Source of the DNA: a virus
Lineage: Duplodnaviria > Caudoviricetes
IMG/VR virus record: IMGVR_UViG_3300021603_000005
Span: 64,001 to 128,000 of that record
DNA length: 64,000 nucleotides
Strand: one strand, 5' to 3'
The notes under the pieces are model-generated. The model saw only the letters and a list, made by a program, of their open reading frames with translations, did no database searches and was not told where the DNA came from. Below, in pieces: positions 9,975 through 41,001 of the stretch (position 1 is the stretch's first letter; each line of letters starts with the position of its first letter). The position numbers and the translations under genes were made by a program.

Positions 9975-10542
9975 AACGCAATTATTGCTAAGTCTTTGTG
10001 AACAGATCGTTGGATGTAGAAAATGCGAATTGCATCGCAAAAGAACTAATCCTGTTTGTGGGTATGGAAACGCAGAAGCATCTATCATGTTTATTGGTGA
10101 GGCCCCCGGAGAACAAGAGGATAGTTGTGGTATACCGTTTACCGGTAGGTGTGGAAAGTACTTTAGGAAGTGTCTGTCAGATATTGGATTCGATACCACC
10201 CAGTGTTTCATAACCAACGCAATAAGATGTAGGCCACCCAAGAATAGAACACCAAAGCCAGACGAAATAGAGATGTGTCAGCAATGGCTACATGCTCAGC
10301 TAGACATCATCCAGCCGAAAGTAATTGTTTGCGTTGGCAAAGTGGCGGCACAAGCGATACTACGTATTCCGTCTAGCCAATCGTTACAGTCTATAATGAA
10401 CAGATGGCACGATCATTGGAAGACAGGGATTAAGACCAGGGCCATTTATCATCCTAGCTACATCATGCAGCACGGTCGTAAGTACGAACAGGTTTTTAGG
10501 AATGATCTAGTGGAGATATTGAACTATGTCCGAACCTATTAA
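9961..10542 (+). CDS. Uracil-DNA glycosylase, family 4 (Fe-S)
   Basis: CRKCELH, GEAPG, TNAIRCRPPKNR, HPSY. The likely start is TTG 9961 after GGAGG; the ORF track starts it at 9934. Confidence 0.9.
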   Translation: MSLTKTQLLLSLCEQIVGCRKCELHRKRTNPVCGYGNAEASIMFIGEAPGEQEDSCGIPFTGRCGKYFRKCLSDIGFDTTQCFITNAIRCRPPKNRTPKPDEIEMCQQWLHAQLDIIQPKVIVCVGKVAAQAILRIPSSQSLQSIMNRWHDHWKTGIKTRAIYHPSYIMQHGRKYEQVFRNDLVEILNYVRTY

Positions 10543-12265
10543 GTTTGATAGATGTGAATGTTCAATTGATCGAGGTAGATTTGACATACGCAATATCCCG
10601 CTGGATTGTCCGGTCGTGTGGGATCTAATCAGTAGTGGATACACAACCGGCATTTTCCAGTTAGAGACAAAGCTTGGACAAGACTGGGCCAGAAAAGTTA
10701 GACCGAGGAGTATTCGTGAATTGTCGGATTTAATCTCGATTCTGCGCCCCGGTCCTCTTGAATCGAATATGAGCCAGGACTATGTTGATGTTAAATTCGG
10801 CAGAAAACCAGTAGAGTATTTACACCCAGTCTTAAAACCGATTCTTGAACCCACATACTCAGCCCTACTATACCAGGAACAGAGTTTGAAAATTGCCGTT
10901 GAAATTGCTGGATTTTCTTTGATACAAGCCGACTCGCTTAGAAAAAGCCTGGGGAAGAAAGACAGTGTTTTAATGGCAAAAGCCAGGACGGAATTCGTAG
11001 AAGGTGCGGTTAAAAAGGGGCTTGTCACAAAGGCCGTGGCAGAAGAAATATTCGGATGGATTGAAAAGGGGCAAAGATATTTATTTAATCTATCGCACTC
11101 AATAAGTTATGCCACATTAGGCTACCAGACAGCGTGGATCAAGGCTCACCTCCCTCATGAGTTCTACGCGTCCTATTTAACGTATGCCAAGTTTAAGGGT
11201 GATGAAAAAGAAGAGATATACAAGCTAGTACAGGATGCCAGATTATTCGGGATAGAAACTATTCCACCAGACATTAGGCTTGGAAATCCTGAGTTTAGAC
11301 TAGTTGATGGTAGGATTGCGTATGGTCTGGCTAATGTTCGTGGTGTTGGCGATGGTGCAATCAATAGGATACTTGAGGCTGGCCAGATAACTACATGGCC
11401 AAAGTTCCTAGATGCGGTACCTGGACTTCATAGAAACGTCGGGGAAGCCCTTATCAAATCCGGTGCATGCGATTGCTATGGATTGTCAAGATCTCGCATG
11501 ATAGCTGAATTACAAGTAATACTAGGCACCAGTGTGCGGGACGAACAAGGGGAGAGAGTAGATGTCAAAGGATTAACGGATCGAGAAAAGGATTGGTTCT
11601 TTACCAATTTCCACAAATTTGGTAGCACGGTGAGTACGTTACAAGGAATGATGAACATACAGAACATAGTGCCTGTTTCTAGGTTGACAAAAAAACAGGT
11701 TATTGAAACTATACTTGAGCTTAGCGAAGGTGCTAAGCGAGACGATATATGCAAAATGAAACGAGCGGAACTCAATTGTATGTTGAAGGAACTTGGGTAT
11801 GACCCAGGCGAACAGATGCGAATTTCTCCATCTAGGAGATCTGCAATACTTGATAAGATCAAACAACTCGATATGGTTTTCGAAGATACGCCAAGAATCA
11901 AAGCCGAAGCTGAAAAGTACTTTCTTGGTATCGCGTTGTCCTGCTCTCCTGTAGACGGCGTTGGTAGCGATCAGGCTACCCATACATGTGTGGATGTTGC
12001 CAGGGCATTGAGCGGGGAAGAATGTAAGGTTTGCGCAATCATAGATATGGTTAAGCATACAAAAACGAAAAAGGGGAAGAATCCAGGTTCCCCGATGTGC
12101 TTCGTAACATTATCGGACTCTACTTATTCGCTCGACCATGCCGTTGTATTCCCTGACGCATATCAGAAAAACAAAGATTTGTGTACTGAGGATTTAATCG
12201 TGTTAGTAACGGGGACAAAAAGAGATGGTTCTTTTATTGTCTCTGACATGAAAAAGTTGATATAA
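10526..12265 (+). CDS. dnaE: DNA polymerase III alpha (DnaE), C-terminal subunit: fingers, HhH and OB
   Basis: IPLD...GIFQLE, LRPGPL, LYQEQ, YLFNLSHSISYA, GLANVRGVG, ALIKSGACD, EKYFLG and OB fold MCFVTLSD. Confidence 0.92.
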   Translation: MSEPIKFDRCECSIDRGRFDIRNIPLDCPVVWDLISSGYTTGIFQLETKLGQDWARKVRPRSIRELSDLISILRPGPLESNMSQDYVDVKFGRKPVEYLHPVLKPILEPTYSALLYQEQSLKIAVEIAGFSLIQADSLRKSLGKKDSVLMAKARTEFVEGAVKKGLVTKAVAEEIFGWIEKGQRYLFNLSHSISYATLGYQTAWIKAHLPHEFYASYLTYAKFKGDEKEEIYKLVQDARLFGIETIPPDIRLGNPEFRLVDGRIAYGLANVRGVGDGAINRILEAGQITTWPKFLDAVPGLHRNVGEALIKSGACDCYGLSRSRMIAELQVILGTSVRDEQGERVDVKGLTDREKDWFFTNFHKFGSTVSTLQGMMNIQNIVPVSRLTKKQVIETILELSEGAKRDDICKMKRAELNCMLKELGYDPGEQMRISPSRRSAILDKIKQLDMVFEDTPRIKAEAEKYFLGIALSCSPVDGVGSDQATHTCVDVARALSGEECKVCAIIDMVKHTKTKKGKNPGSPMCFVTLSDSTYSLDHAVVFPDAYQKNKDLCTEDLIVLVTGTKRDGSFIVSDMKKLI

Positions 12266-12299: not shown

Positions 12300-12746
12300 A
12301 TGAATCTAAACGGCTTACAGTGTGTCGGTCGTGGTAACTTGGTTTCAAAACCCGAGTCCAGAAATATCGGTACCAAGGGGACCGTTGTAACGAATGCAAG
12401 AATCGCATTTAATCGCTACTATAAGCAGGGCGAAGATCGTAAAAAGGAAACGGTGTTTCTTGACGTTTGTGCATTCAATTCGCTAGCTAAACGATTGTCT
12501 GCTTTTGACAAAGGCGACTTTTTGCTGGTTACAGGCACAATCACAGACGATTCGTATCAATCGAAGGATCACGGCACGATTACTAAGATGAAGGTTTTGC
12601 TAGAAAGTGTTGACCGAGTATATACGGTAGATGCCAATAGCAAGAATGACAAACCCAACACACCGGTCCCTAATAAACCAGAGCCGCAAGATACATCAAA
12701 CAGTGTGGATTCCGGAGATTACGATAGCGACATTATTCCGTTTTAA
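12300..12746 (+). CDS. ssb: Single-stranded DNA-binding protein
   Basis: GNLVSKPE OB-fold pattern, KGDFLLVTG, acidic tail ending DSDIIPF; GGAGG ribosome-binding site upstream. Confidence 0.9.
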   Translation: MNLNGLQCVGRGNLVSKPESRNIGTKGTVVTNARIAFNRYYKQGEDRKKETVFLDVCAFNSLAKRLSAFDKGDFLLVTGTITDDSYQSKDHGTITKMKVLLESVDRVYTVDANSKNDKPNTPVPNKPEPQDTSNSVDSGDYDSDIIPF

Positions 12747-12766
12747 CTCAGAAAGATAACTGGGGC

Positions 12767-15454
12767 ATGAGTAAAAAACGATTATTGTTTGTTGGTGAAG
12801 CTAGCTATCTAGCTACTGGTTTTTCTACATACTGGAATGAAGTTATTAAACGCATTAACGCAACCGGTAGGTTCGAGGTAGCGGAATTTGGGTCGTATGC
12901 TAGCGATTCAGATCCAAGAAATCAATGTGTTCCATGGAAGTTCTACCCCAACGCACCAGACCCCAATGACCAAGTAGCCAATCAGGCGTACCATTCGAGA
13001 CAAACAAATCAGTTTGGCGAATGGAGATTTAGCGATGTGCTGTTAGATTGGAAACCGGATTGTGTTTGCGTTCCTCCAGGAACAAATATTGAAACGCCGC
13101 GTGGTCCTGTGCCTATAGAAAACATTAAAGTTGGTGATTATGTTATTAGCCACAAAGGGGTTCCCAGGCGAGTCACCAAAACCATGCGAAGGCAACACGT
13201 TGGGGATATCTCTAATATCTATATTTTTGGTGACAACAGAACATATAGACTCACCAACGAACATCCTGTTTTAGTGATAAGGAGTAAAAAGCGTACATGG
13301 AAAGAGCGAGATGTTCGACAAAGGCATTTTGCTAAAGATGCAGAGTTTATACCAGCATCTAAAGTTGGGGTAAATGATTATGTTGTTATTCCAATATATA
13401 GTGGACATAAAATAGACAACATCAATCTGAAGAATCACCTATCGCAATTTGTTGAACTAGACAATAGACTATACCCTGTTGGACATAGGGATTGTACCGA
13501 TTTTTCATTACCAAGCCAACTGGATATTACGCAAGATTTAGCAAGATTCTTAGGATATTATTGTGCTGAGGGAAGTGTTAACCGAGGCAGTATAGAACTA
13601 TGTTTTGGTTTCTATGAAAATAAATTTGTGGACGACGTATTATCTTTGGGAAAAGAGTTGTTCGGATTAACTGGTGTTGCAACAGCAAATAGGGATCGTG
13701 GAAATAGAACGGTACGATTTTGTTCTATATTATTGTCCAAATTCATGGAATCGATATGTGGCCGCGGCGCTCACAATAAAGTTGTTCCTGATTGTATCTA
13801 TCAAAACAATAATTGCGATATTGTTAAAGGATTTTTGACTGGATTTATTCGTGGTGACGGAACATACAAGTACGATACTGTATCAGCCACTACAGTGTCA
13901 AAAATCATGGCACATCAAATCAGACAATTATCCCTACGGATAGGGGTAAGAACATCAATAAAATTCAGAAAAAACAAAGGAAGTAAGCTGGTTCCTGGAA
14001 CTGGGCCGTCGTATGATATTGATGCGTATGGTGGACACGCCCGCAATATGCATAGAATTGTGCAAAAGCACGAGGAATTGCCGACAAGAATACTCGATGA
14101 TCCGAAACACTTAGATAAGGCGGGGAAAGGCTGGATTGATGAGAATTATTTATTACTTCCCGTGCGGAGAATTAGAAAAACACAGTATCGTGGACAGGTA
14201 TATAATCTTGAAGTCGAAGAAGATAATAGTTATGTAACGGGGTTCGCTGTCCATAATTGCCAAATTCGCGATTTTTGGATGGATGAGTTCGTACTAAGAT
14301 CCCCTCTTAGGAGTAACTTCAAGGTCATTTGGATGCCGACTATAGACGGCGCACCCCAACGCAAGCTATGGGTAGACACATACAAGCAGTGCGATGCGAT
14401 AATGACATATTCCCAATGGGGCAAAGATCTGCTTGAAAAGGAATATGACATAAGAGTAACCGCCGTGGCATCCCCTGGTGCTGAACTAGATCTATTCAAG
14501 CCCGTTCCAGATAAAGGGGCGCATAAAGCCAAACACGGGATAGACCCTTCGTCGTTCATTATTGGTACGGTGATGCGAAATCAAAAACGCAAGCTGTATG
14601 TAGACTTGATAGAAGCGTTTGCTGAATGGCTACGCTCGTCAAAGAAAAGTTCCCATCTAGATATTGCGAAGAAAACGTATCTGTATCTACACACCAGCTA
14701 TCCGGATGTAGGGTATGATATCGGTGACGCAATACAAAAGTTCAAAGTTGGCAACAAGGTATTGATGACGTACCTATGCTCTGCTTGTGGAACTGCATAT
14801 CCATCGTTCTTCTCCGGAGAATGGGCGCACTGTCGAAGATGCGGTAAACTAGCGGCACATCCGCCAAATGCAAATCATTCTGTTGGTAGAGATGTTCTTG
14901 CCAGCATATACAATATCTTTGATGTGTATGTACAATATTCCATCTGTCTACATCCAGATACGCCAATATTACTTAGTGATTACACACACAAACGAATAGC
15001 AGATATTAAGTCCGGAGACCAAATCGTAAACGGGAATGGCGATGTTGTCAAAGTCAACTGGTGTAAACAGACTAATGATACGTCATCTACTGTTGAGATC
15101 AAAACATACGAGAATGATAAGCCGGTTATAGTCACACACGACCATCGTGTTTTGACAATGAATGAAAACAATGAGCTAGTATTTTTGGAAGCGAAAGATC
15201 TTCAGGATAAATGGGTGGTTTGTCCAATCAACAATGCAAAAATCTTTGATGCAATTGGGGTGTGTAATCCAAAAAGAAATAGTAAACACAGAAAGAAGCA
15301 TAAGAATTATCTGCTAATTAAAGTCAAGTCGGTTAAGCAAAGCAACTACACTGGTCCAGTTTACGACCTTGCAGTCGTTTCACCGAAAGGGGGTGATGCC
15401 AACTCTCGCAGTTTCGTTGCGAACCATTTCGTAACACACAACTGTGAGGGTTGA
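12767..15454 (+). CDS. GT-B (GT4-like) glycosyltransferase, N-terminal part, with two inteins
   Basis: GEASYLATGF..Y, IGTVMRNQKRK, LYLHTSYPD and YNIFDVYVQYSI|intein|CEG. A TGA falls inside the E-G-x-G-x-P-x-x-E motif. Confidence 0.85.
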   Translation: MSKKRLLFVGEASYLATGFSTYWNEVIKRINATGRFEVAEFGSYASDSDPRNQCVPWKFYPNAPDPNDQVANQAYHSRQTNQFGEWRFSDVLLDWKPDCVCVPPGTNIETPRGPVPIENIKVGDYVISHKGVPRRVTKTMRRQHVGDISNIYIFGDNRTYRLTNEHPVLVIRSKKRTWKERDVRQRHFAKDAEFIPASKVGVNDYVVIPIYSGHKIDNINLKNHLSQFVELDNRLYPVGHRDCTDFSLPSQLDITQDLARFLGYYCAEGSVNRGSIELCFGFYENKFVDDVLSLGKELFGLTGVATANRDRGNRTVRFCSILLSKFMESICGRGAHNKVVPDCIYQNNNCDIVKGFLTGFIRGDGTYKYDTVSATTVSKIMAHQIRQLSLRIGVRTSIKFRKNKGSKLVPGTGPSYDIDAYGGHARNMHRIVQKHEELPTRILDDPKHLDKAGKGWIDENYLLLPVRRIRKTQYRGQVYNLEVEEDNSYVTGFAVHNCQIRDFWMDEFVLRSPLRSNFKVIWMPTIDGAPQRKLWVDTYKQCDAIMTYSQWGKDLLEKEYDIRVTAVASPGAELDLFKPVPDKGAHKAKHGIDPSSFIIGTVMRNQKRKLYVDLIEAFAEWLRSSKKSSHLDIAKKTYLYLHTSYPDVGYDIGDAIQKFKVGNKVLMTYLCSACGTAYPSFFSGEWAHCRRCGKLAAHPPNANHSVGRDVLASIYNIFDVYVQYSICLHPDTPILLSDYTHKRIADIKSGDQIVNGNGDVVKVNWCKQTNDTSSTVEIKTYENDKPVIVTHDHRVLTMNENNELVFLEAKDLQDKWVVCPINNAKIFDAIGVCNPKRNSKHRKKHKNYLLIKVKSVKQSNYTGPVYDLAVVSPKGGDANSRSFVANHFVTHNCEG
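13067..14257 (+). mobile_element. Intein with LAGLIDADG homing endonuclease (397 aa)
   Basis: Starts CVPPGTNIETPRG; block B LTNEHPV; LAGLIDADG blocks LGYYCAEG and FLTGFIRGDG; ends VYNLEVEEDNSYVTGFAVHN followed by Cys+1. Exteins rejoin as KPDCV-CQIRDFWM. Confidence 0.93.
14945..15442 (+). mobile_element. Mini-intein without endonuclease (166 aa)
   Basis: Starts CLHPDTPILL; block B VTHDHRV; ends YTGPVYDL...SFVANHFVTHN followed by Cys+1. Confidence 0.92.
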
Positions 15455-16159
15455 CTAGGCTGGGGTATGCCGATCACCGAGGCTATGGCGACATCGTGTC
15501 CCGCAATGGTTGTAAATTATTCTGCTATGGAAGATCATGCAAAAATGCCGGGTGGTATTCCAATTAATGTTGAAAGGTTTTTCTACGAAGCAGTAATAGA
15601 AACAGAACAGCGCAGAGCGCTACCTAGCAATAAACATTTTGGCGAACAATTAACCCGCATTATAAAGATGAGGCCAGAGCAAAGGACAGAACTGGCAAGA
15701 CGAACACATGAGTATATGGTTGAACCAGCGGACGTATTTGGTCAAACAGAAAAACTACCGCGATTTGGATACGATAGAACAGCGGCAATATGGATGAATG
15801 TTATTGATTCCATAGGGGTGTTAGATAGGTCTAAGACATGGGATAGAAAGGAACCGAACTACCGGGTTCCAGACCTAAAAGCACCGAATAGGGTGATGAG
15901 CAATACCGAGTTTGTGAGGTGGGCTATAACTAGCATTATGCGTAGGCCGGATCTTGCCACATCGTTCATGGCAAATGAATGGATCAGGTGGTTGAATTGT
16001 GGATTTAAGATAGAGGGAAACCAAAGGGTTCCGTGTGATCGAAATACCATAGCGAACATGGCTATACAGATTGTTAACGAATATAACGGTGCCGAAAAAA
16101 TGAGGGCGGATAGCTTGGTTGCTCGAAACAATAGCGAAATTGGGTTCACGGTGTTGTAA
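15455..16159 (+). CDS. GT4-like glycosyltransferase, C-terminal continuation in the same frame as 12767..15454
   Basis: After the TGA the same frame reads LGWGMPITEAMATSCP, completing the EGxGxPxxEA motif. First ATG is at 15467. Confidence 0.8.
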   Translation, partial: LGWGMPITEAMATSCPAMVVNYSAMEDHAKMPGGIPINVERFFYEAVIETEQRRALPSNKHFGEQLTRIIKMRPEQRTELARRTHEYMVEPADVFGQTEKLPRFGYDRTAAIWMNVIDSIGVLDRSKTWDRKEPNYRVPDLKAPNRVMSNTEFVRWAITSIMRRPDLATSFMANEWIRWLNCGFKIEGNQRVPCDRNTIANMAIQIVNEYNGAEKMRADSLVARNNSEIGFTVL

Positions 16160-26701: not shown

Positions 26702-29245
26702 TTATGATATCTCCGATGGATACATGAATACGTTCATTGCCTGATCTATATATGGCTTAAAGGTATGGTTTTCTTGTTCAACCCATCTTACAGAAACTGC
26801 TGTGCCAACCGGGATATATCCAGGACCGGAATATGGCTCACCAAGATTTAGAACCGTATCAAGTAAATTTAATTCACTATCCGTAAACATTGATGTATCA
26901 CCCTCTACTACCGTAACTTCGTAGTTTGGTGGTCCGACCTTAGACGATGGTGGATTCAACGACCTGGCAATAGTGCATTTAAGTTCCGGTGGTGACGGTA
27001 GGGCCTCTTCAACGACCCATGCAGTAACAGCAACTATATTATTTGATGTATATCTATCTGGATACAATCCCCATTTGGCTGGTTTTATTCTTAAGAACAT
27101 TCCAATTGGTAGGTGTGCAGGTGCGTCTGGGTACTCAGATAGGTTTGTTACTGCAACATTAAATATGGCAGCGGGAACAAGTTGGACATACCCATTAACA
27201 AGAGTCTGTTTGTGAATTTGACACATATACCACGGATGATCACTATCCCTACTAATTATCTTGGCGACGATTGACCCATCACCCCCAGCACCACGATTAA
27301 CCCTATGCTCTGGAGGATCTTTAAAAATATCCTCTGGATATTCTGGATATTGTTGTCTAGCCTGATCTCTTTTGAGCTTGTCAATCAACTCTTGATAGTA
27401 TCTTTGATATCTACCAAGTTCGTTGGTATAGAGATTGCACTTATAAACGGTTGTTACACCACGAATATCATACGATACACTAATATTTGTGATATTGGTT
27501 CCACGACCAATTGCTGTTCCAAGATTAACTGTTGGTAATCCAGGAACCTCTAATTCACCAGTATCAAACTCTGTAATACGATGTGTGTATGTTCTAATTC
27601 TGGCATATGCAATTTTGTTCATAATATCAATGGCATCATCCATAGACATGCCACGATACGAGTACGCCCATGGCGTTAATGACGAATCAAAGACAACCCT
27701 TGTTTTTCCGGGCAATCTTAGTTGTGGTGGAATCAAAGTATCGCTCGTCCATGGGCCATATGAATCTCGACGATCAATAATCGGTATGTAAACAGAGCCG
27801 ACCTGTGTCATTCTAGACACTTCTCCGTTTGTCTCTAGTGCCCCATAACTAGTTCTAGTCCCAATCAAAACCTCTAGCGGGACCGGGAATGTAATAAGCA
27901 AAATGCTGCCCCGTTTATTCGATGGAGCGCCAGGCACCTTATATAGATCTACGCGATCTACCGATATCTTCATATAGTATCTGTTTTGGCCAGTTCCCAG
28001 TAAATCTGACGAGTCAACAACTTGATCTGCCCACTCACCACCAACGGTACTTGGATTATTTAGTACAGCGAAAGCAACCCATCTTCCATCACTGACACCA
28101 AATTTCAATTGACCGTCTGTTGGTAAACTTTCTGGAGAAGTATTGTCCTCCCACCACCCCTCATTAACAGTATCTATCCATGGAACATTGTCGCTATCAA
28201 TTAATGACGCTGGTATGTCGATATAGAAGGTTCTTCCCCAGTGATTTTCAGCATAAGACGTTAGCGCCTTCAATTCTTCTTCTGGTAAATTGGTAATTCG
28301 ACCATTAAGAGCATCCTTCATCTCATCGATAGATGTGAATCTTGTTCTTATTATTCCTTCCCTAGACACTATCTTAAATCTTGGGGAAGTTAATACGCCT
28401 CCTTCGTCATCGAATCCCCAAAATGGTTTAAGTAGACTGCCATTATATTTTGTAAGTGTTTGTTTGTTAGCCCCAAGAACTATCGTTCTTGTTACCTCGT
28501 CTCGATTTTCTACACCAGTTACCAGTCGAATAACAGAATTTGGATATTGACTAGCTAGTCCATCCATATCAAGAGAAACAACTTTTCGCTGTAGTGTACG
28601 AACATAAACGTCGTAGACAGATCCATTTTTAACAGTATCTACATACCATTCGAATCCATGATCATCTGCTACTTGATTAATAAATTCTATTAACGACATT
28701 GCAGAGCCACGAACCCTGTATGGAATACGCTCATTCAATCCAGTTGTGCTTTGTATAGTTCGCGATGTTGTTGTGATATCGCTAAGATTGACACGAAACG
28801 ATATCTCCCCATATTTATAGATAACGCTCTCTATCCTATTTTTGATAGTAGAATATTTAACCCCTCCTACCAAATCCTCATTTGTTTCGGGCTGAACTAA
28901 TACTACATTTTCCCCAAGATTAACTCCTGTTGGTGACTGAACAACCACCTGAACACAATCCATTGCAGGTCTCATATCAGTCATGCGAACCGAATATACA
29001 CCGCTTCCGGCCACATTAATAATCTGATTATCCCACATCTGTATTAAGCCATAAAAATCTAACGACCCTATCTGTATATGCTCAATGTGTCTCATGCCCT
29101 GTCGTGGTAATCCGGCAAGCGTAAAATGATGTGATTCATCCTCTACGACAGACATATTATATGTCGTTGGGTTTTGGTTCCAACCAAACTGAGCACCAAA
29201 ACTCCTAAGATAACAACCAAAGATAATCTTTTGCTGAATTTCCAT
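26702..29245 (-). CDS. Tail tip / hub-like protein
   Basis: Lies downstream of the tape measure gene; SLIEFINQVADDHGFEWYVD resembles hub (gp27/Tal-like) proteins. Confidence 0.55.
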   Translation of the reverse strand: MEIQQKIIFGCYLRSFGAQFGWNQNPTTYNMSVVEDESHHFTLAGLPRQGMRHIEHIQIGSLDFYGLIQMWDNQIINVAGSGVYSVRMTDMRPAMDCVQVVVQSPTGVNLGENVVLVQPETNEDLVGGVKYSTIKNRIESVIYKYGEISFRVNLSDITTTSRTIQSTTGLNERIPYRVRGSAMSLIEFINQVADDHGFEWYVDTVKNGSVYDVYVRTLQRKVVSLDMDGLASQYPNSVIRLVTGVENRDEVTRTIVLGANKQTLTKYNGSLLKPFWGFDDEGGVLTSPRFKIVSREGIIRTRFTSIDEMKDALNGRITNLPEEELKALTSYAENHWGRTFYIDIPASLIDSDNVPWIDTVNEGWWEDNTSPESLPTDGQLKFGVSDGRWVAFAVLNNPSTVGGEWADQVVDSSDLLGTGQNRYYMKISVDRVDLYKVPGAPSNKRGSILLITFPVPLEVLIGTRTSYGALETNGEVSRMTQVGSVYIPIIDRRDSYGPWTSDTLIPPQLRLPGKTRVVFDSSLTPWAYSYRGMSMDDAIDIMNKIAYARIRTYTHRITEFDTGELEVPGLPTVNLGTAIGRGTNITNISVSYDIRGVTTVYKCNLYTNELGRYQRYYQELIDKLKRDQARQQYPEYPEDIFKDPPEHRVNRGAGGDGSIVAKIISRDSDHPWYMCQIHKQTLVNGYVQLVPAAIFNVAVTNLSEYPDAPAHLPIGMFLRIKPAKWGLYPDRYTSNNIVAVTAWVVEEALPSPPELKCTIARSLNPPSSKVGPPNYEVTVVEGDTSMFTDSELNLLDTVLNLGEPYSGPGYIPVGTAVSVRWVEQENHTFKPYIDQAMNVFMYPSEIS

Positions 29246-30945
29246 TAGAACCCTTCCTTGATAAGGTATCTAATTGTCCTGTCGTATGTAAATGCTGTTG
29301 GACTCCAATTTTCACTATCCCCTATCATAATAAAACCACTAGACGGAATACTTAGGTATTCATCGCACATTGTTCGCATAACGGAACTTGACGGTCTGGC
29401 CGTATATCCCTTACCCTTTATCGTAATTGTAGTGATTTTTTCGTTAACAGTATTCATGTCCTGGATCACTGGACCCAAAAGCCTTCCAGGTATCGGAAGG
29501 ATAGCAGTTATTTGAGCACGATTCTGGTCTTGTATACTAACTTCTAATTGATTATCAGATGATGTATCCCACGTCCATGACACCCTAATGGTACCCGATT
29601 TTTCATTGACAGCAGACACCTTGGTTCGTATTGTATTGCTTACTACGGATGTGTCTGGTATCAGCGAATCTATTATCTCAATAGCCTTTTCCCTGGCCGC
29701 AGCGTCACTGGGAACAGCACCCCTAGCATTATTCAGTTTTTCCTCTGATGTATCGCCAAGTCCACGGATATCTGCCGATAGAGTAATAACATACTGACTA
29801 TTTTCTGAAGTATAGTTAACGTTAGCTTCGTAGTAGATTAGTACGTCTGGATTCTCGGTACTATTCCATTCGTATGAAAACGAGGCGGTTCCTTGTGACT
29901 GATTAAGTCCGACAGACTTCACATATGGAGATTCGCCTATCGTTGCCCCACCTAATAATGTGCCAACAGCGATAAGAGCTTCTGCTCTTGCCATGGATTG
30001 TGATGGAACATAATCCCTGGCGATGTCCATAGCGGAGACATCTCCAGCAGCCTTGTTACTAGACACTCCATAAACAATTCCGTCGTATCTGACACGATAT
30101 TCGTCATTTTCCTGCGAATAGTCTATGCTAAAGCTTTTCTCTATGTAATGGTTGCCAGAGCCAAGTGTCCATGACTCCTTTATGGAGTATGTTCCGTCGA
30201 ACGATCCTATACTTGATGTTTTGGTGTACGCGCCACCCATCCATGTATCTACACCAATAATGCTGGTTAGAACGCCAGACGGAATAAGTCCTATCGCCTT
30301 TGTGTCACACCACGCTTTTGCGTGTTGCCACGCTTCTTCTCCATCGTACTTACTGCCCGTTTCGTCGTACCCAAGTATTCCACGCGCGTTAACATCGTGT
30401 GTAACCCTAAACATCTGACCTTCGCGACCTTCCATATCCTCGAAAGACCACGCCTCTCCAGCAGATTCTATTAAATCAAAGTTGAATGTATCTTCATGAC
30501 TTAGCGTTCCATTGATGTATATCCAATCGGCCTGAAGCCTAATTGTATAGTCACACCTCTGTGTCCATATACCCTCTGTGAAGCTAATATCCAGTATTCG
30601 TGGGTTGCACTTCACGACCGGTTGACCAGATTGCGGTTGCCACTCTAATGATTGTCCGTCTTGCGAAAACAACCATCTAATAGCCTCTTGTTTACGTAAT
30701 ATAGAATTAAAATCTTCATTATTTTCCGCATACGATTCGTCTGGTGGATAGTTAGACAACTCCCAAAATGCATCGGCTAGATTTGTGTAATGACCACTAG
30801 GAGATCCTTTAAATGGCAACAATGTTCCAGTCAGGGTAATGTCGTAGTTGGCACCAATCTTACCACCGTCCTCGGTTGTTTGATAGGTTTTATTCAGTGT
30901 TACCAGTGGTGCTGGTATGATTGCCTTTCCGCTATATCGCAACAT
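29245..30945 (-). CDS. Distal tail / baseplate-like protein
   Basis: IIPAPLVTL..Y...YDITLTGTL N-terminus and three internal repeats; lies between the tape measure and hub genes. Confidence 0.5.
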   Translation of the reverse strand: MLRYSGKAIIPAPLVTLNKTYQTTEDGGKIGANYDITLTGTLLPFKGSPSGHYTNLADAFWELSNYPPDESYAENNEDFNSILRKQEAIRWLFSQDGQSLEWQPQSGQPVVKCNPRILDISFTEGIWTQRCDYTIRLQADWIYINGTLSHEDTFNFDLIESAGEAWSFEDMEGREGQMFRVTHDVNARGILGYDETGSKYDGEEAWQHAKAWCDTKAIGLIPSGVLTSIIGVDTWMGGAYTKTSSIGSFDGTYSIKESWTLGSGNHYIEKSFSIDYSQENDEYRVRYDGIVYGVSSNKAAGDVSAMDIARDYVPSQSMARAEALIAVGTLLGGATIGESPYVKSVGLNQSQGTASFSYEWNSTENPDVLIYYEANVNYTSENSQYVITLSADIRGLGDTSEEKLNNARGAVPSDAAAREKAIEIIDSLIPDTSVVSNTIRTKVSAVNEKSGTIRVSWTWDTSSDNQLEVSIQDQNRAQITAILPIPGRLLGPVIQDMNTVNEKITTITIKGKGYTARPSSSVMRTMCDEYLSIPSSGFIMIGDSENWSPTAFTYDRTIRYLIKEGF

Positions 30946-30957
30946 TGCTATTCTCCA

Positions 30958-33900
30958 TTAGTATCCATGCTCATAGAAAGTTATATACCCAGATGACAGG
31001 GTTCCGTATGCCGTGAAACCATACACAAATAAGTCGATATTGCTCGTCGATATAGTGTTAGTTCCATTGGTAAAGAGATTAATCTTGCTATTTTTGGTCG
31101 TATGTCCGTGGACCATAAATTCTACGTTGTCATATGATATACCAGAAATTCCAAAGACATACAGATTTGTTACACCAGAAGGCCATTCAAAACCTGTAAT
31201 ACACATGTCAATATACGCCACTTCCCCAGTATGTACGTCAAGATATAGTGGCCAGGAACCACTTGTGTCGTATGATAATTCTCCATCTCCTATGGTATAA
31301 AGATCGCATATACCAGACGAGTTAATGTCTGGTCCGCTGATAAACAGACCTATGTATCCGCTTGGCCAAGACAACGTTTGCATAAACAGCGGACATGTAA
31401 TTCCGCCGCTCTGTGTAATAATTCCAGATTCTACGTTTATAAACAGGTGCCAGGATTGATCCATCGTAGATGGAGCAGAATCGTTGTACACCGATAGGGG
31501 CAATGACTTTAATGTAAATCCAAGTGTTTGTCCAGATGGAGATCCATAGACCATTAAGTCTAACGAAGAATTTTCATCACCATCATAGGTCTTCAAAAAT
31601 AATGGCTGACTATATCCAAATATTCCATATACATATAGATCAACAGATTCTGTTATAATCTGTGCCTTCAGGAATAAGTCAACTGACTCAGAACAGATCT
31701 CCGGACCCATCGTATGTAAATCGATTGAACCAGAAGATAGTAAGTGCCCATTTTCTGTTACATCAATATTACCAGACGATACGTCTGCCGACGACACAAA
31801 CAGATCGATGCTATCGCTTACAGATTCAAAACCTCCAATAATGGTGTCGATAAAACCACTTTGCTTTTCGTGTCCACCTAAATGTAAGTCAATTGTGTTG
31901 GCTGGATAAAAATCCATCGGAATAAGAGAAAGGCCACATTGATATATTTTTTGTAATTCATCATAAGTAAATTTTGGAATATTTTTCCATAAAACAACTT
32001 CGTCTGTTTTATATCCTGGCGAACTAACAAAGTTGGAATATCTGAAAAAAGCATGAGAAGCTATTCCGCTTGGATATCTTGTTTCTGGCAAAGAACCCAT
32101 GCTCTGCCATCCACTACCGTTCAGGCTAATATCGCCGGATGCAGTTGTTCCATCAAATACTAGGCGAGATATAATTAAATGCCATCCACCGACAAAATTC
32201 GGTGTTAGAAACTCCGGTAATGAATAAGGGTTTGAACCAAGATAATAACTCATTTCGACATTGGAGTATACCCATGACGGATAAATACCTTCATCAATAA
32301 CACCGCTATTGCTCCATCCAAATATACAGCCATTTACTGCACCTTGTGTCCAGTACATCGACGTTATCGATATAGTACCAGACGAAGAGTCATAGAGTGG
32401 ATTGACTTCGTGATAAAACGATGCGCCAACATCTGGATAGAATCCATCACCAGTAATTCCGCTTCCTATTAGTCCACTGACATATATCGCGCCAAGTGTA
32501 TCCCACTCAACGAGTTTCGTTTGTTCAAGATTTCCTGATGTGAACGGATGATAATACACCACGTTATCTGGGTATGGTAGGTGTTGACCTATGAATCTAA
32601 CATCGGGCAGGTATCCAGAAACATAAGCTGGTATTGTTCCAGATGATTGCTCAGGAACATCAATGAATAGATCTATACTTCCGCTGGAAGTAATACATCC
32701 CCCTATGTATAAATCCTTGGTATTCGATGGATATTGATCCATTGAAAATTGCGATAAGCCCATTTGATAAAATGTTTTTAGTTGATCGGTCGATAGTTTA
32801 GGTATATTGTGCCACAGAATTACTTCGTCGCACGGAAAATAATCCATTGGGCCTACTGTAAAATTATTGGGTTCAAATCGTACACTGGAACTTATCCCGG
32901 ATGGCGTTCTAGTTTCTGACTTAACGGGAAGAGAAACCCAATCACCGCCGTTAACACTAACGTCCCCAGACGCGACAACCCCATTAAAATAAACTCTTCC
33001 TACAATTAATACCCACCCGCTTTGACTTACGATATCACCACTAGGACTAAATATAACAGAGTTTCTGTCTCCAACTTTATATCCAACCGTACTCCTATTT
33101 GTTGTACTATTGACATGCAAAAGGATTGAATTATATGTATCAACTATGCTGTCACCCCAACCGATATCGTACTGCTTAACAAAACTATTCGATCCACTAC
33201 TCCATATTGCCGCTGTATATGATGTGTCTCCGGAACAATCAGGATACAACGATCCCCTATCTCTTACCAGATAGGGACTAAGCGATGTTGGTTTAACTCC
33301 ACTTCCTATAAAACCATCCGGTATCATTTGTGTGTTATAGCCAAACCACCACACGTTTTGGGTATATTCTAGTCCACCCGATGTAAACGGATGATAGAAC
33401 ACAACGTCGTTTGGATATAGTAAATGCGATCCAATAGACCTTATTCCGTTAATGGATAAATCGCACAATCCACTAGAACATTCTTTTCCACACACAAACA
33501 GCGTAGTTTCTTCTGTGTCGTTGGCTGGTATTCCACCAATATATAAATTTATTTCATTAGATGGATATTGAGATAACTGCTTCCTAGAATCACCCAATTC
33601 ATACAATTCAGATAACTGATCGTTTGTAAATTTTGGAATATTTCTCCATAGTACAACTTCATCTGCCGGATATTGTTGTGTCGAATATTTATGATAATGA
33701 TACATTCTAAGGTGCGAATCTGTTCCGGTAGGATATGTCGATTCGCTTAGTGTTCCAACGTTCTTCCATCCACTTCCATTAATGCTTAGGTCGCCAGAGA
33801 TATCTGTTCCATCAAAAGATATTCGTCCAATTAGCAGAGTCCAGCCACTTGTATCTGCATATGGCCCAGAAGTAGTAAAAAGAGTTGGTCCAGACCCATT

Positions 33901-35085
33901 AACCCAATATTGTAGTCTAAGATTATTTGATGCATCAACATAACATCTCAAGCCATTATAAAAGTTATTGTAATTACCCCATCCAGCACCATATAACGTA
34001 TAATTATTGAAGCTACCGCTTGTCCAGACCATCATTGTCATAGACGTGGTGCCAGATACACCAGCATATAAATTCCCGCGCTCGAATAATAGTGTACCAT
34101 CATTCCATAGTGGCGCTGCAATAACGCCGCTGCCAATCAACCCTTCTTCTGTGTAAGATATGCTATCAAGATATCCAGACCATGATGCCGACTTCGTATA
34201 TTCAATGCCACCAGACGTAAAGGGATGGTAAAACACTATGTTGTCCGGGTACAATGGATGCGCATCTAATAACACAGAGCTTTTTATGAACAAATCACAA
34301 GACCCAGAAGAAACACTTGGAATGGGACCAGAAATAAACAGATCAATTGATTCTGATAAAGGATACTGTAATTCATAATCGCTCATCTGGCTATTGTATA
34401 CGGTAGCTAGATCATACAGATTTTGTAATTCTTCATTAGTAAACTGTGGCGCGTTTTTCCATAAAACAAATTCGTCAACGGGAACCTGCCATACCCCATT
34501 TTTTCTATTATTCTGATAATATCTTAGATAAGCAGTATTGAGTGTTGGATAATTGGCTTCGCTTAATGCCCCCAGGCTCTGCCATCCACTACCATTTATA
34601 CTAATGTCGCCAGATGCAACGGACCCATCGAATAAAACCCTTGCTACTATCAGGTGCCACGCAACGTTTGTTCCAACTGGCCCAACAATTGAAAACGAGT
34701 CCAAGGATGTAGTTCTTGCATAGTACCCCAGCTTAACATGATCTGTTGAATCGGTATATATCTTTAATCCGTCAGTAAAATAATTGGCCACACTACCATA
34801 TCCACCGGCTATATTCGTTTCGGCGCTGGCGTGAATACCGCTTGTCCAAACAGCCATCGTTAATGATGTCGTACCACTAGATGTTGGATAATCGGATAGT
34901 GTTTGTGTTTCTATATAATTTTCTGAATATCCCTGCTGTACACAAAATCCACTACCTATGAGTCCTGATGCCGTAGGATTAGCTCTGCCACTAACGTCTG
35001 TCCATAATTTGCCAGCCATATACTCATGTAAGCCAGACGTGAATGGCAGGTAAAATATTACGTTGTCGTTATACAAAAGACCCAT
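30958..35085 (-). CDS. Tail-associated protein with four LamG/concanavalin-like repeats
   Basis: Four copies of FYHPFTSG...LIGSG...W.L...R..FDG...SGD.S.NGSGW...DEVVLWKN.P.F...L..LY, joined by ~12-aa SG.IDL.I.G linkers. Confidence 0.7.
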   Translation of the reverse strand: MGLLYNDNVIFYLPFTSGLHEYMAGKLWTDVSGRANPTASGLIGSGFCVQQGYSENYIETQTLSDYPTSSGTTSLTMAVWTSGIHASAETNIAGGYGSVANYFTDGLKIYTDSTDHVKLGYYARTTSLDSFSIVGPVGTNVAWHLIVARVLFDGSVASGDISINGSGWQSLGALSEANYPTLNTAYLRYYQNNRKNGVWQVPVDEFVLWKNAPQFTNEELQNLYDLATVYNSQMSDYELQYPLSESIDLFISGPIPSVSSGSCDLFIKSSVLLDAHPLYPDNIVFYHPFTSGGIEYTKSASWSGYLDSISYTEEGLIGSGVIAAPLWNDGTLLFERGNLYAGVSGTTSMTMMVWTSGSFNNYTLYGAGWGNYNNFYNGLRCYVDASNNLRLQYWVNGSGPTLFTTSGPYADTSGWTLLIGRISFDGTDISGDLSINGSGWKNVGTLSESTYPTGTDSHLRMYHYHKYSTQQYPADEVVLWRNIPKFTNDQLSELYELGDSRKQLSQYPSNEINLYIGGIPANDTEETTLFVCGKECSSGLCDLSINGIRSIGSHLLYPNDVVFYHPFTSGGLEYTQNVWWFGYNTQMIPDGFIGSGVKPTSLSPYLVRDRGSLYPDCSGDTSYTAAIWSSGSNSFVKQYDIGWGDSIVDTYNSILLHVNSTTNRSTVGYKVGDRNSVIFSPSGDIVSQSGWVLIVGRVYFNGVVASGDVSVNGGDWVSLPVKSETRTPSGISSSVRFEPNNFTVGPMDYFPCDEVILWHNIPKLSTDQLKTFYQMGLSQFSMDQYPSNTKDLYIGGCITSSGSIDLFIDVPEQSSGTIPAYVSGYLPDVRFIGQHLPYPDNVVYYHPFTSGNLEQTKLVEWDTLGAIYVSGLIGSGITGDGFYPDVGASFYHEVNPLYDSSSGTISITSMYWTQGAVNGCIFGWSNSGVIDEGIYPSWVYSNVEMSYYLGSNPYSLPEFLTPNFVGGWHLIISRLVFDGTTASGDISLNGSGWQSMGSLPETRYPSGIASHAFFRYSNFVSSPGYKTDEVVLWKNIPKFTYDELQKIYQCGLSLIPMDFYPANTIDLHLGGHEKQSGFIDTIIGGFESVSDSIDLFVSSADVSSGNIDVTENGHLLSSGSIDLHTMGPEICSESVDLFLKAQIITESVDLYVYGIFGYSQPLFLKTYDGDENSSLDLMVYGSPSGQTLGFTLKSLPLSVYNDSAPSTMDQSWHLFINVESGIITQSGGITCPLFMQTLSWPSGYIGLFISGPDINSSGICDLYTIGDGELSYDTSGSWPLYLDVHTGEVAYIDMCITGFEWPSGVTNLYVFGISGISYDNVEFMVHGHTTKNSKINLFTNGTNTISTSNIDLFVYGFTAYGTLSSGYITFYEHGY

Positions 35086-35097
35086 ATCATCCTCGTG

Positions 35098-38000
35098 TTA
35101 CGCAAGCTGTTGTGCCGCTACACCGAATATACGAGCACCTTCCATGTCAGAAGCGTTAGCCAAGTCTCTAAGAGTTCTATATATAATTTGTTTTGCCGCG
35201 TTTCTAGCAGCATCCTCAATAGCCGGTCGCAACTCATTCTGAATAGCCTCTGTTAGACCATTTACATTAACATTTACTTGCTGTAGTGACTCAACCTTAA
35301 GACCAATACCCTCTTGTATTGTCTTTGATGTATCTGCCAATGTTTCGGTTAGTACTCGCTGTTGTCCAGATATCTCTTGTAATGTGGTCGTATTGTCGCG
35401 AGACGCAGAAGTATTGTCTCCGATACCAGGAATTTCAATAGCCACTATTTTATCTATCGCCTCTTTGATAATCTGTGCATTTTCCGTATTTGTTGTACCG
35501 ATTGATGCTATTACTGCGTCTATTCTAGAAACCAAATCGGATAGCTGGCTAACCTGTTGCGTTTGCTGTTGTCCATTTATTTCCGTCCTGCCAAAACCAG
35601 CGGCCGGATCGTTTATTGGCAATAAGTTAAATAGTCCACCAAGGTTTTCTTTAAGCCGATTGAACGTATCAGAAATTACATTCGTTGACTGGACAATATT
35701 TTGTACGGCTATGTCTCCAGACTCCCCAATCGTGACTGTCCTTCCACCGTATCCGGGAGCAGGCATTATGATACCGCCGCTAGTTTTCCCTGCTTGCAAC
35801 TCTTCGATAAACTTGCTTGAACTAAAAAGTTCTTGTGCGACAGTTTGCTGTCTGGCTGTATCTAATGATACGGTTGGTTTATATGGCGATGGCCCAACAG
35901 ATGGTATTGTGGCAGGGACAATGCCAGTAGACGGCTGTGTTGTCGCGACACCAACGGGTCGAGATGCTGTCGCCAAGTCTGCTATAGCAGTTGTTGCCAC
36001 TGCGGCAGAACGACCTAACTCATTTATTGAATTGGTTGTTTCGGTATTGACTGTCCTTCCCTTTTCGAGAACATCAAATAATTCGGTAACGGCCGGGGTC
36101 ACCTGAAATTCGTCTAGTTTCGCACCCTCACCAGTCGTTAGAATTGACAATATCCTATCTTGTATTTCCTCTTCGGTTCCAGGAGAAACAGCAGCACGTT
36201 CCTTCGCCAGTATTGCTGCTATAGCAGACAGTCCAGTTGTTACTGTTGTCTTAGATGTAGATTCTCGAATTTCCTGTAAGTTTTTTAGATCCCGCCCAGG
36301 ACCAATTATAACACCACCGTAATATCCCATTCCACCTACAGCCTTGCCGGGTTCCTCGACTCGTACCTTTTGCTGACTAAGCAATTGATTTGCCCTGTTT
36401 TCCAATTCTTTTATAGATAATCCGCCAAATAGCGCTCGTTCAAAGTTGGTTAGTTGTCCAGGTGTCATCGTTTCAAGATTAGCTTTGGTTCCAGTGAACA
36501 ATTGTGTCTGGTCTATTGGGGCTTCTTCAAGACCCATTTGAATAACAGCAGACTCAAATTTGTCGACGGCTTTACTGAATTTGTTAGCACCAAACGGATC
36601 GTTCAGACCAGTCTCTTCGGCAATGATCCTTTCTTGTTCTATGCCTATTTGGCCAAGTTGTCTTTCCAGTAATTGGATTTGTTCTTTTGTTAGTTCTGAT
36701 CGCTGCTTTGATTCTAATCTAAAAATCTCGGTAATCGTTTCGTTAAATCCTGTTATAGCATTTTGCATCGATTCGCTAATGCCAGCAAATTGCGTTTTGT
36801 CTACAGCGGTTGGTTCAACGTTGATTTGTCTCTGATAGATTTCCTGTAATCTTTTTTGTGACTCTATTAGAGAATCAGTTAATCGGCGAGATGCTTCCTT
36901 ATTGACATCAAGTGGACCACCAGCTATCTCTTTCGCAATGCCATAGGGTTGTTCTATTTGACCACGAGTTTCCCTTATTAGTCGTAGTTGTTCATCAAGA
37001 ACAGCCCTTTCTTCTTGTGTACCAGCGGCAGATCTCCTGCCAACAAGAACCATTTCTGTCTTGCGCATTCCCTCTATTTGAGCGCCAAGTTTTGCTTGTA
37101 AATTAACAGCCTCCTCTTGTTTTGTAATCCTTTCTTGCTCAAATTGGTCGTATGATGATAGCGATCTCTTTAGTGATTCTATAGCCGCTTGCAACGCCAG
37201 AAAACGACTTCTGGTATTTTCGAGATCCTGAACCATTGCAACGAACGACTTCTCCATACCAGTGTCGTCTATCGTTACTCCAGTTTCAGCGGCCCTATAG
37301 ATAGCATTTAACTGATTTGCCATCTCTCGTGTGACATTCGTCATTGCCTCTTGCAACGACGGGACAAGATTGGTCGATCTCAATAAATCTGTTGGTGTTC
37401 CGGTTTCTCTAGCTGGAGTTCTAACCCCTGCTCGTCTTAGCATTTCCATCGTAATTTCGAATTGTGTCTCTGGGGTATTGCCGAGACCAACTTCTCGTTG
37501 AAGCTGTCTAGCCTCAAATTCCCCTCGTCTTTGCGATACCAATAGTCTAGCATTTAGCTCTTGCTGTGTAATATTGATGATATCGTCTTGTGTTGGCATA
37601 ATAATACCAATATGTTTCTTAATAAGTTCATTCATTTTGTCGGTATTGATTCCAGCCCCGGATAGCTCAATACCCTCAAGCATAGCAACACCGATATCTC
37701 GAAGCAACATACTAATACGACCCTTAAGCTTATCCGGAATTTCTTGTGATTCAATAAATCGCTGGATTGTCTCGTCTATCTGATCTTCCTCTAGTGGGGG
37801 CAAAAATTTTCCTGGTTCTAGTTTACCAGCAGTTGTCGCTTGAGCCTGTAAACTAGAAATACTTTCTACAAACTTCTTCGTTATTTCTACAATATCATTG
37901 GTTGTTTTAACGTAATTCGCCAAATCTGGTTTTGCTGTTTCTAACCCAGCCAATCTCCCAGTTCCAAGCAACTCTATCGTCGCTTGTTTTTCTAGTTGCT

Positions 38001-40995: not shown

Positions 40996-41001
40996 TTGAT
41001 A

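Follow-up and report, generated by a model that had tools for sequence, protein, structure and literature searches.

A candidate stop-hop site behind an intein in the catalytic motif of a phage GT4 glycosyltransferase gene

An interrupted glycosyltransferase gene in an uncultured phage

The window analysed here is a stretch of 64,000 nucleotides, bases 64001-128000 of the IMG/VR virus record IMGVR_UViG_3300021603_000005, which has 143,428 bp with direct terminal repeats and is an uncultured 143-kb phage. Positions are those of the window, and features lie on the plus strand unless stated otherwise. The gene in question codes for a glycosyltransferase and is interrupted, inside a catalytic motif and directly behind an intein, by a stop codon and a few further bases. 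Its first open reading frame (ORF1, 895 aa, 12767..15454) codes for the N-terminal two thirds of a GT4/GT-B glycosyltransferase with two inteins, as judged from the ORF call and translation, and ends with the intein terminus ...HN followed by C-E-G-stop. Coding resumes with W-G-M-P-I-T-E-A... at 15461..16159, the C-terminal third of the enzyme, and ends with a TAA stop at 16157-16159; within this part the ATG at 15467, the first codon of ORF2 (230 aa), is an alternative restart codon.

The Pfam matches in ORF1 were Intein_splicing, Hint_2 and LAGLIDADG_3, and PF00534 was present in intein-less homologues of 545-575 aa. The AlphaFold model of one homologue, P0168, has a pLDDT of 94 and GT4 enzymes as structural matches, the best Foldseek matches being 3oy2 (a chlorovirus glycosyltransferase), MshA, GlgM, BshA and PimB' with E values down to 1e-18. 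The P0168 model and the intein-less homologues exhibit the features of a retaining GT4 glycosyltransferase of the GT-B fold, namely two Rossmann-like domains, the EX7E motif and the PF00534 match. Once the insert is skipped, the motif of the window enzyme reads E-G-W-G-M-P-I-T-E. On the P0168 model the break maps to the loop between strand 326-329 and helix 338-345, within the C-terminal Rossmann domain, and this helix bears the second Glu of EX7E. ORF2 has 362 homologues at E <= 0.001, and no cultured relative of the gene was found among 50,697 phage records (INPHARED), by DNA or protein.

The translation and the Pfam matches place intein 1, of 397 aa with a LAGLIDADG endonuclease domain, at 13067..14257, where it has no part in the break. 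Mini-intein 2, of 166 aa and without an endonuclease domain, lies at 14945..15442 between YSI and CEG of the EX7E motif, its terminus ...VTHN being reached at 15442. Its translation fits a class 1 intein, with Cys1 (CLHPDT...), TxxH (VTHDH), a terminal His-Asn and a +1 Cys, and matches Pfam Intein_splicing with E = 1e-20; splicing is predicted.

Straight after mini-intein 2, the frame from 15440 reads AAC TGT GAG GGT TGA CTA GGC TGG GGT ATG CCG. The first C-extein codons, TGT GAG GGT (15443-15451), code for C-E-G, and the last of them, GGT (15449..15451), which specifies the second residue of E-G-x-G, is the candidate take-off codon. It is followed by the stop TGA (15452..15454), the gap triplet CTA (15455..15457) and the candidate landing codon GGC (15458..15460), and then by TGG GGT (15461-15466) and ATG 15467. 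After the TGA the frame is open for 234 codons, to the TAA at 16157-16159. The initial annotation had described this arrangement at 15440-15469 correctly and had proposed that ribosomes hop over 9 nt between matched glycine codons. The codons are indeed matched, GGT at take-off and GGC at landing, and this GGC is the first GGN downstream. Deletion of the 9 nt gives ...YSI-CEGWGMPITEAMA, as had been predicted, and this reconstruction of the native motif is right because the intein-less relative L003 reads exactly YSICEGWGMPVTEAMA. Two other records, L002/L009 (IMG/VR) and L089 (metagenome), possibly from one sample, have an identical 9-nt insert except that its stop is TAA and not TGA; L002 has ~91% protein identity to the window.

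The interruption recurs in diverged relatives

Relatives were found by ORF2 and ORF1 searches and their contigs were then retrieved, giving seven distinct versions of the interruption in eight metagenomic sequences. With a slash at the point where native codons resume, the junctions read GGT TGA CTA GGC / TGG in the window, GGT TAA CTA GGC / TGG in L002 and GGC TGA ATT GGT / TGG in L179 (9 nt each), GGT TAG TTA GC / TTC in L169 and GGC TGA AT GGT / TTT in L176 (8 nt each), GGT TGA GGA / ATG in L008 and CTT TGA CTT / GGA in L172 (6 nt each), and GGT TGA GC / ATG in L004 (5 nt). The L004, L172 and L169 versions are each present in two or three separate assemblies. Every version lies directly behind an intein at the YSI/CEGxGMP site, and deletion of the insert gives back C-E-G-[W/F/L]-G-M-P exactly in 7/7. 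A stop stands immediately after the last read codon in all eight sequences, and the homologous position is occupied by each of the three stop codons in turn (TAA in L002, L009 and L089, TAG in L169, TGA in L179 and L176).

For the insert type of the window, the take-off codon is GGT or GGC in 5/5 sequences and the landing codon GGC or GGT in 4/5, L169 having AGC; the gap triplet is variable (CTA, ATT, TTA), with AT in L176. Across the family, when the sequence downstream of take-off is read in any frame, five of the seven versions have their exact landing place at the first triplet that agrees with the take-off codon in nucleotides 1-2. In L169 the first GGN also leads to the ORF2 frame, at the cost of two residues, so that 6/7 versions reach this frame. 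Recurrence of the gap with matched Gly codons, which the initial annotation had put forward as a check on the hop, was thus found in relatives, L004 and L169 with their AGC being the exceptions. At the protein level, more ORF1 products end in ...HNCEG (P0164, P0165, P0166) or ...HNCEGW (P0169).

The break was found in none of 114 distinct uninterrupted contexts (103 intein-less, 11 intein-bearing), all of which read C-E-G-x-G-M-P. As expected of a bypass, the two open frames that flank the short gap are therefore one chain elsewhere, as these contexts and the deletion test show. The second Gly of E-G-x-G is near-invariant in the family alignment and present in nearly all listed relatives. Pattern scans for further interrupted alleles returned the L002 contig only in IMG/VR, and 120 chance matches, none relevant, in the genome collection.

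The L172 junction (L172:85-110), GAA GGT CTT TGA C, contains the same shift site as the prfB +1 frameshift (CUU UGA C), preceded closely by a Shine-Dalgarno-like AAGG. Ribosomes slipping +1 at this point would meet a stop after six codons, so that the slip would lead nowhere and would compete with the 6-nt hop.

A predicted RNA hairpin abuts the take-off codon

The initial annotation had seen no strong stimulatory hairpin. However, a strong one exists, upstream of the stop and not downstream: a two-tier RNA hairpin at 15400..15453, with outer arms 15400-15413 and 15440-15453 and an inner stem pairing 15416-15423 with 15428-15435 around the loop CCAT. Its outer 3' arm runs over the N-C-E codons and the take-off codon into the first two bases (TG) of the stop. 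The minimum free energy is -18.8 kcal/mol for 48 nt (z -5.3), -22.6 for the 63 nt upstream and -29.0 for 15392-15454.

In all eight sequences, the 63 nt upstream of take-off fold with -19.3 to -26.5 kcal/mol (z -2.7 to -4.6), and in each of these folds the last paired base directly precedes the take-off codon. This register holds for take-off after CEG, after CEGL (L172) and after CEGWG (L004, L008), the stem in L004 and L008 being extended by CCAGYC/GGCUGG as far as take-off. When downstream bases are included, the stem continues over the take-off codon into the stop in the window, L002, L169 and L176. Within the whole gene, the six most stable 63-nt segments all lie at the hairpin. None of the 114 uninterrupted contexts reached -19 kcal/mol in 63-nt folds (means -8.4 to -9.0, minimum -17.6), and the 48-nt folds differed from the intein-bearing and intein-less controls with p = 3e-4 and 6e-6, respectively (Mann-Whitney).

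When the window is aligned with L002, L179 and L169, pairing holds for 97% of cells, and of the compatible changes two are double and four one-sided; the hairpin is kept with compensatory changes in the three relatives. L176 and L172 retain its architecture with unrelated sequence, and in these two as in L004 and L008 the hairpin is built from other sequence. Folds of 91 nt centred on the site revealed no shared downstream or local structure (z about 0, with L169 as the exception at z -3.1); they missed the upstream hairpin because the segment cut off its 5' arm. In L169 (L169:2838-2885), and there only, pairing is possible between the insert plus the codon behind it (UUAGCUUC) and GAAGCUAA, which lies 16 nt downstream (z = -3.1).

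Insert and intein are inherited together

An intein is present in all interrupted alleles; at the same insertion site L169 and L004 carry full-length inteins with a LAGLIDADG domain. Six of the seven break versions belong to an intein lineage with an unusual insert in block F (KGG[D/S]...), the intein of L172 being unrelated. In this lineage block F reads KGGDANSRSF (window 15395-15415; also L179, L169, L004 and L008), compared to E-DDH-SF in canonical relatives, and in the window and L002 Arg stands in place of the conserved block-F His. Codons for the odd intein residues A-N-S-R-S-F make up the hairpin's 5' arm, so that the RNA structure appears to constrain the protein sequence of the intein. 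A search for the lineage in other host genes returned three proteins only, all of them this glycosyltransferase.

Between the window and L169, identity is 48% for the inteins, 64% for the ORF1 exteins and 48% for the ORF2s, and because the two are so diverged the insert must be old. The L169 exteins share ~90% identity with P0222, from which both intein and insert are missing; intein and insert were thus gained or lost together, as would be expected were the insert inside the co-conversion tract of homing.

Intein 1 is precisely missing from L002 (~91% protein identity), where L002:2504-3997 reads DWKPDTLLLLRDFWM compared to DWKPDCV[intein]CQIRDFWM in the window, which shows that the two inteins of the gene are gained or lost independently. 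Elsewhere in the family, another intein ends just before residue 4 of the ORF2 equivalent (L101:2950-3010), and P0025 reads ...SEAKSC and then LPPGS..., an apparent intein start ~10 residues further downstream. With inteins at these further sites, the small motif region of the enzyme is an intein hot spot.

Selection and termination at the break

We then compared the window with L002, which bears the same insert. ORF2 showed a dN/dS of 0.06 at a dS of 0.97 and the ORF1 exteins a dN/dS of 0.024. Selection downstream of the break, which the initial annotation had named as a further check, is thus strongly purifying, and ORF2 is therefore translated and selected while interrupted. This bears on the possibility that the gene is decaying or dispensable, the insert being a deleterious scar of a template switch at a quasi-palindrome or of homing repair that hitch-hikes with the intein, with neither a hop nor a two-chain enzyme giving useful activity. 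The insert is always tightly linked to the homing element, as such a scar would be, and its GTTG extends the palindrome formed with the hairpin 5' arm, as a template switch might have left it. Yet the low dN/dS has accumulated over a dS of ~1 with the gene interrupted, ORF2 is intact in every version, at 24-48% identity to that of the window, compensatory changes maintained the hairpin after the insert arose, and the stop has stayed a stop through TGA, TAA and TAG. Decay is in our judgement very improbable.

Readthrough or an altered code would place a residue at the TGA, giving C-E-G-X-L-G-W-G-M-P. The insert is in frame in the window, and UGA followed by C is generally held to be a leaky stop context. 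Against this, the homologous stop is TAA or TAG in relatives, and the 5-nt and 8-nt versions shift the frame, so that readthrough is not the common mechanism; three added residues would moreover turn EX7E into EX10E. TGA is the terminator of 25/97 long open frames in the window, and ARAGORN found in the whole 143-kb genome only two tRNA-Met, Leu(taa) and Glu, with no suppressor tRNA. An alternative code or a suppressor is ruled out by these routine TGA stops and by the tRNA set, and placement of a residue at the TGA by any such route is extremely improbable. Assembly error, recent inactivation and readthrough, which the initial annotation had considered, are effectively excluded by the recurrence, the varied stops and the dN/dS.

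A short stop-hop as the probable mechanism

The observations show that the insert is real and old and that ORF2 is under purifying selection; they also show that diverged relatives repeat the combination of stop, matched codons and hairpin, which uninterrupted genes lack. From them we infer the hop, its efficiency and the role of the hairpin. Our reading, which the sequence comparisons make probable, is a short programmed stop-hop that is aided by a refolding upstream hairpin and travels with the intein as a unit. The product would be one GT4 glycosyltransferase of ~564 residues, made by two protein-splicing events and one short bypass.

In the proposed mechanism, the ribosome would halt when the P site contains GGT, paired to peptidyl-tRNA-Gly (anticodon GCC), and the A site TGA, and slow decoding of the stop would leave time for the weak GGU wobble pairing to open. 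A stop would be the A-site codon at take-off in 8/8 sequences, which agrees with the slow codon expected of a bypass. At the halt, the 3' arm of the hairpin would be within the ribosome and the 5' arm waiting outside; the just-unwound hairpin (15400-15453) would refold behind the ribosome and bias the mRNA to a forward slide, each base slid forward letting one more outer pair form. The anticodon would then pair again at GGC, the first codon cognate to it, which lies 9 nt further along, and decoding would restart at TGG. With the GCC anticodon, GGU forms a wobble pair but GGC a Watson-Crick pair, and the move from GGU to GGC would be favourable because the one is exchanged for the other. Take-off and landing codons are cognate in the window and in 5/7 versions across the family, L169 and L004 having AGC. 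The hop would yield the native C-E-G-W-G-M-P-I-T-E, with the junction peptide ...YSICEGWGMPITEAM, and insert and hairpin would move with the intein as one unit, as a short-range counterpart of the T4 MobA and gene 60 cassette.

A split gene is the main alternative, possible but rather unlikely. ORF1 would end, after splicing, in ...YSICEG, ribosomes would terminate at the TGA and reinitiate at ATG 15467, and the two chains would assemble non-covalently, the hairpin serving as a coupling aid or giving a forward bias to post-termination ribosomes. Stop-start coupling is usual in this phage: the ATG of the next gene, at 16159, overlaps the ORF2 stop. The spacers of 5, 6, 8 and 9 nt disregard the frame, as they would for separate ORFs, and the break falls in a strand-to-helix loop of the model. 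A restart loses no residue in L004 (TGA GC ATG) and L008 (TGA GGA ATG), and the start codon of L004 pairs into the base of the hairpin.

A further set of points weighs directly against the stop-hop. The ATG of G-M-P is kept in 8/8 sequences, 2-12 nt past the stop, so that a restart is always possible. L004 has a textbook coupling arrangement and is the only version without a cognate (GGN) codon before the ATG. The triplet at the exact landing place in L004 (5 nt) and L169 (8 nt) is AGC, a two-of-three match which for a split gene would be irrelevant. The context ctggggtATG is like that of the ORF1 start, ctggggcATG; when the ORF1 start (aactggggcATG, window 12745-12769) and the possible ORF2 restart (ggctggggtATG, 15445-15469) are compared, their contexts are nearly equal, whether by coincidence, owing to the W-G codons, or because they form a weak and unusual ribosome-binding site. 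With every entry of the cassette into a new allele, the native codons that lie between insert and ATG may be renewed, and conservation of the [WF]-G codons therefore says little. Conservation of the 12-nt spacer between the window and L002 (11/12) was not significant compared to a background of 83%, or 80% for intergenic sequence. Unstimulated stop-hops in E. coli constructs are inefficient. The matched codons could stem from the origin of the insert by tandem duplication and a nonsense change, the junctions TGGGGT/TGAGGA in L008 and CTTTGA/CTTGGA in L172 being duplication-like, and the hairpin could enforce translational coupling or be the quasi-palindrome that caused the insertions. However, these origins by duplication or template switch do not account for the later upkeep of the hairpin.

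The cost of a restart lies in the motif itself. It would drop one or two residues of E-G-x-G in the window, L002, L179, L169, L176 and L172, namely F-G in L169 and L176, G in L172 and W-G in the window and the others, and no version has evolved an N- or C-terminal extension. The cut lies inside the C-terminal Rossmann domain and not between domains. All the breaks are insertions that spare the native codons and none is a simple nonsense change (TGG to TGA), the easy route to fission, and in every version the codon next to the stop is repeated, in near-cognate form, where coding resumes. Support from Shine-Dalgarno sequences is poor: the window ATG lies 12 nt past the stop with only GAGG at -17 and GGGG at -1, no nearby Shine-Dalgarno-like motif was seen by eye in the L169 junction, and the L176 stop is followed at once by an ATG whose frame, 6 codons long, runs across the ORF2 start. 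We know of no role in reinitiation for a hairpin of -20 kcal/mol that ends at the codon before the stop, which also counts against a split gene. The hop proposed in the initial annotation thus stands as the leading mechanism for a functional, selected feature, with the reservations that landing would be on AGC in 2/7 versions and that a restart at ATG 15467 is compatible with most of the data. Hop and restart may each operate, in different alleles.

Genomic surroundings

Upstream of the glycosyltransferase gene, a protein of 579 aa (10526-12265) is a C-terminal DnaE fragment, in which finger, HHH and OB are the only DNA polymerase III alpha domains, and is adjoined by an SSB gene (12300-12746). 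The order DnaE fragment, SSB or sigma-like gene, glycosyltransferase and further GT genes is common to the P0006, L169 and L179 contigs. On the minus strand at 29245-41001, ORFs of 1968, 1380 and 571 codons lie in one frame with a single stop and a short spacer between them; two starts at these junctions have a Shine-Dalgarno-like sequence, and the junctions look like ordinary gene junctions.

Relation to known systems and significance

The known cases of translational bypassing are T4 gene 60 with its relatives, over 20-50 nt, and one yeast mitochondrial lineage. Short stop-hops have been demonstrated with synthetic constructs only; those in E. coli (Weiss et al. 1987, as reviewed) yield one residue from 9 nt, and according to the same 2016 review no natural in-frame stop-hop was known (PMC5009743). 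As in those constructs, the stop lies here between matched codons, and peptidyl-tRNA would leave the first and re-pair with the second; L008 and L172 would likewise use 9 nt for one residue, and the window 12 nt. Unlike the synthetic stop-hops, which are artificial and low-level, the site is natural and deeply conserved, lies in an essential motif and has a strong upstream hairpin.

Gene 60-like cassettes combine GGU/GGC take-off and landing pairs, a stop after take-off and a homing endonuclease as carrier (10.1101/2022.08.31.505936). The interrupted glycosyltransferase resembles T4 gene 60/MobA as a phage gene with a Gly take-off codon followed by a stop, a matched landing codon (GGU/GGC included) and RNA structure at take-off, and also because the insert interrupts a conserved enzyme and is inherited with a selfish homing element. 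In contrast to T4 gene 60, the gap is 5-9 nt and not 20-50 nt, the take-off codon lies within the 3' arm of an upstream hairpin and not in the 5' arm of a take-off stem-loop, the carrier is an intein and not a free-standing endonuclease, and the host gene codes for a glycosyltransferase and not a topoisomerase. As we read it, the site works like the gene 60/MobA cassette family but is not a member, being set apart by gap, hairpin, carrier and host gene.

Refolding upstream hairpins beside a shift site raise the level of +1 frameshifting and lower that of -1 frameshifting, in a 70S system as well (PMC3639245, PMC6321510), and for gene 60 the pairing of exiting mRNA has been proposed to drive forward movement (10.1101/2024.12.09.627546). 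The hairpin described here, like those at frameshift sites, abuts the recoding site on its 5' side, would refold as the ribosome leaves and is taken to favour 3' movement; those, however, act on single-nucleotide shifts in engineered or coronavirus-derived contexts, with no hop over a stop. The byps of Magnusiomyces capitatus mitochondria are many mobile short inserts skipped in translation, largely independently of mRNA context (PMC5009743). With them the site shares an A-site codon that is slow or unused and take-off and landing codons that are sometimes imperfectly matched, compare AGC in L004 and L169, whereas byps are mitochondrial and without intein or hairpin. Genes broken up by homing-endonuclease insertions, among them the 'fractured genes' whose inteins are split (PMC2677866), likewise consist of two ORFs with a working product after a selfish element has entered a conserved site; those genes are split within the intein and joined by trans-splicing, whereas here the intein is whole and the break of 5-9 nt lies 3-5 codons into the C-extein.

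In more general terms, and with about even confidence, we suggest that inteins of uncultured large phages carry a miniature recoding cassette, made up of a strong hairpin partly of intein codons and, a few codons into the C-extein, a stop and 2-6 further bases, over which ribosomes hop 5-9 nt. Were the gene split instead, it would still be unusual, as an enzyme cut in its catalytic loop by a tiny intein-borne insert. If the stop-hop is true, no natural and conserved family of short stop-hops would have been described before it, and it would add a second case, unrelated to T4 MobA/gene 60, in which a homing element depends on bypass for its host gene to stay functional. Similar sites may be widespread and overlooked, because gene callers report such a gene as two and annotate each half as hypothetical. 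The variants in gap length, codon pair and hairpin would form a ready-made series on how a codon is left and found again, which could show how far a refolding upstream hairpin moves the ribosome and would bear on why selfish homing elements repeatedly pair with bypass sequences.

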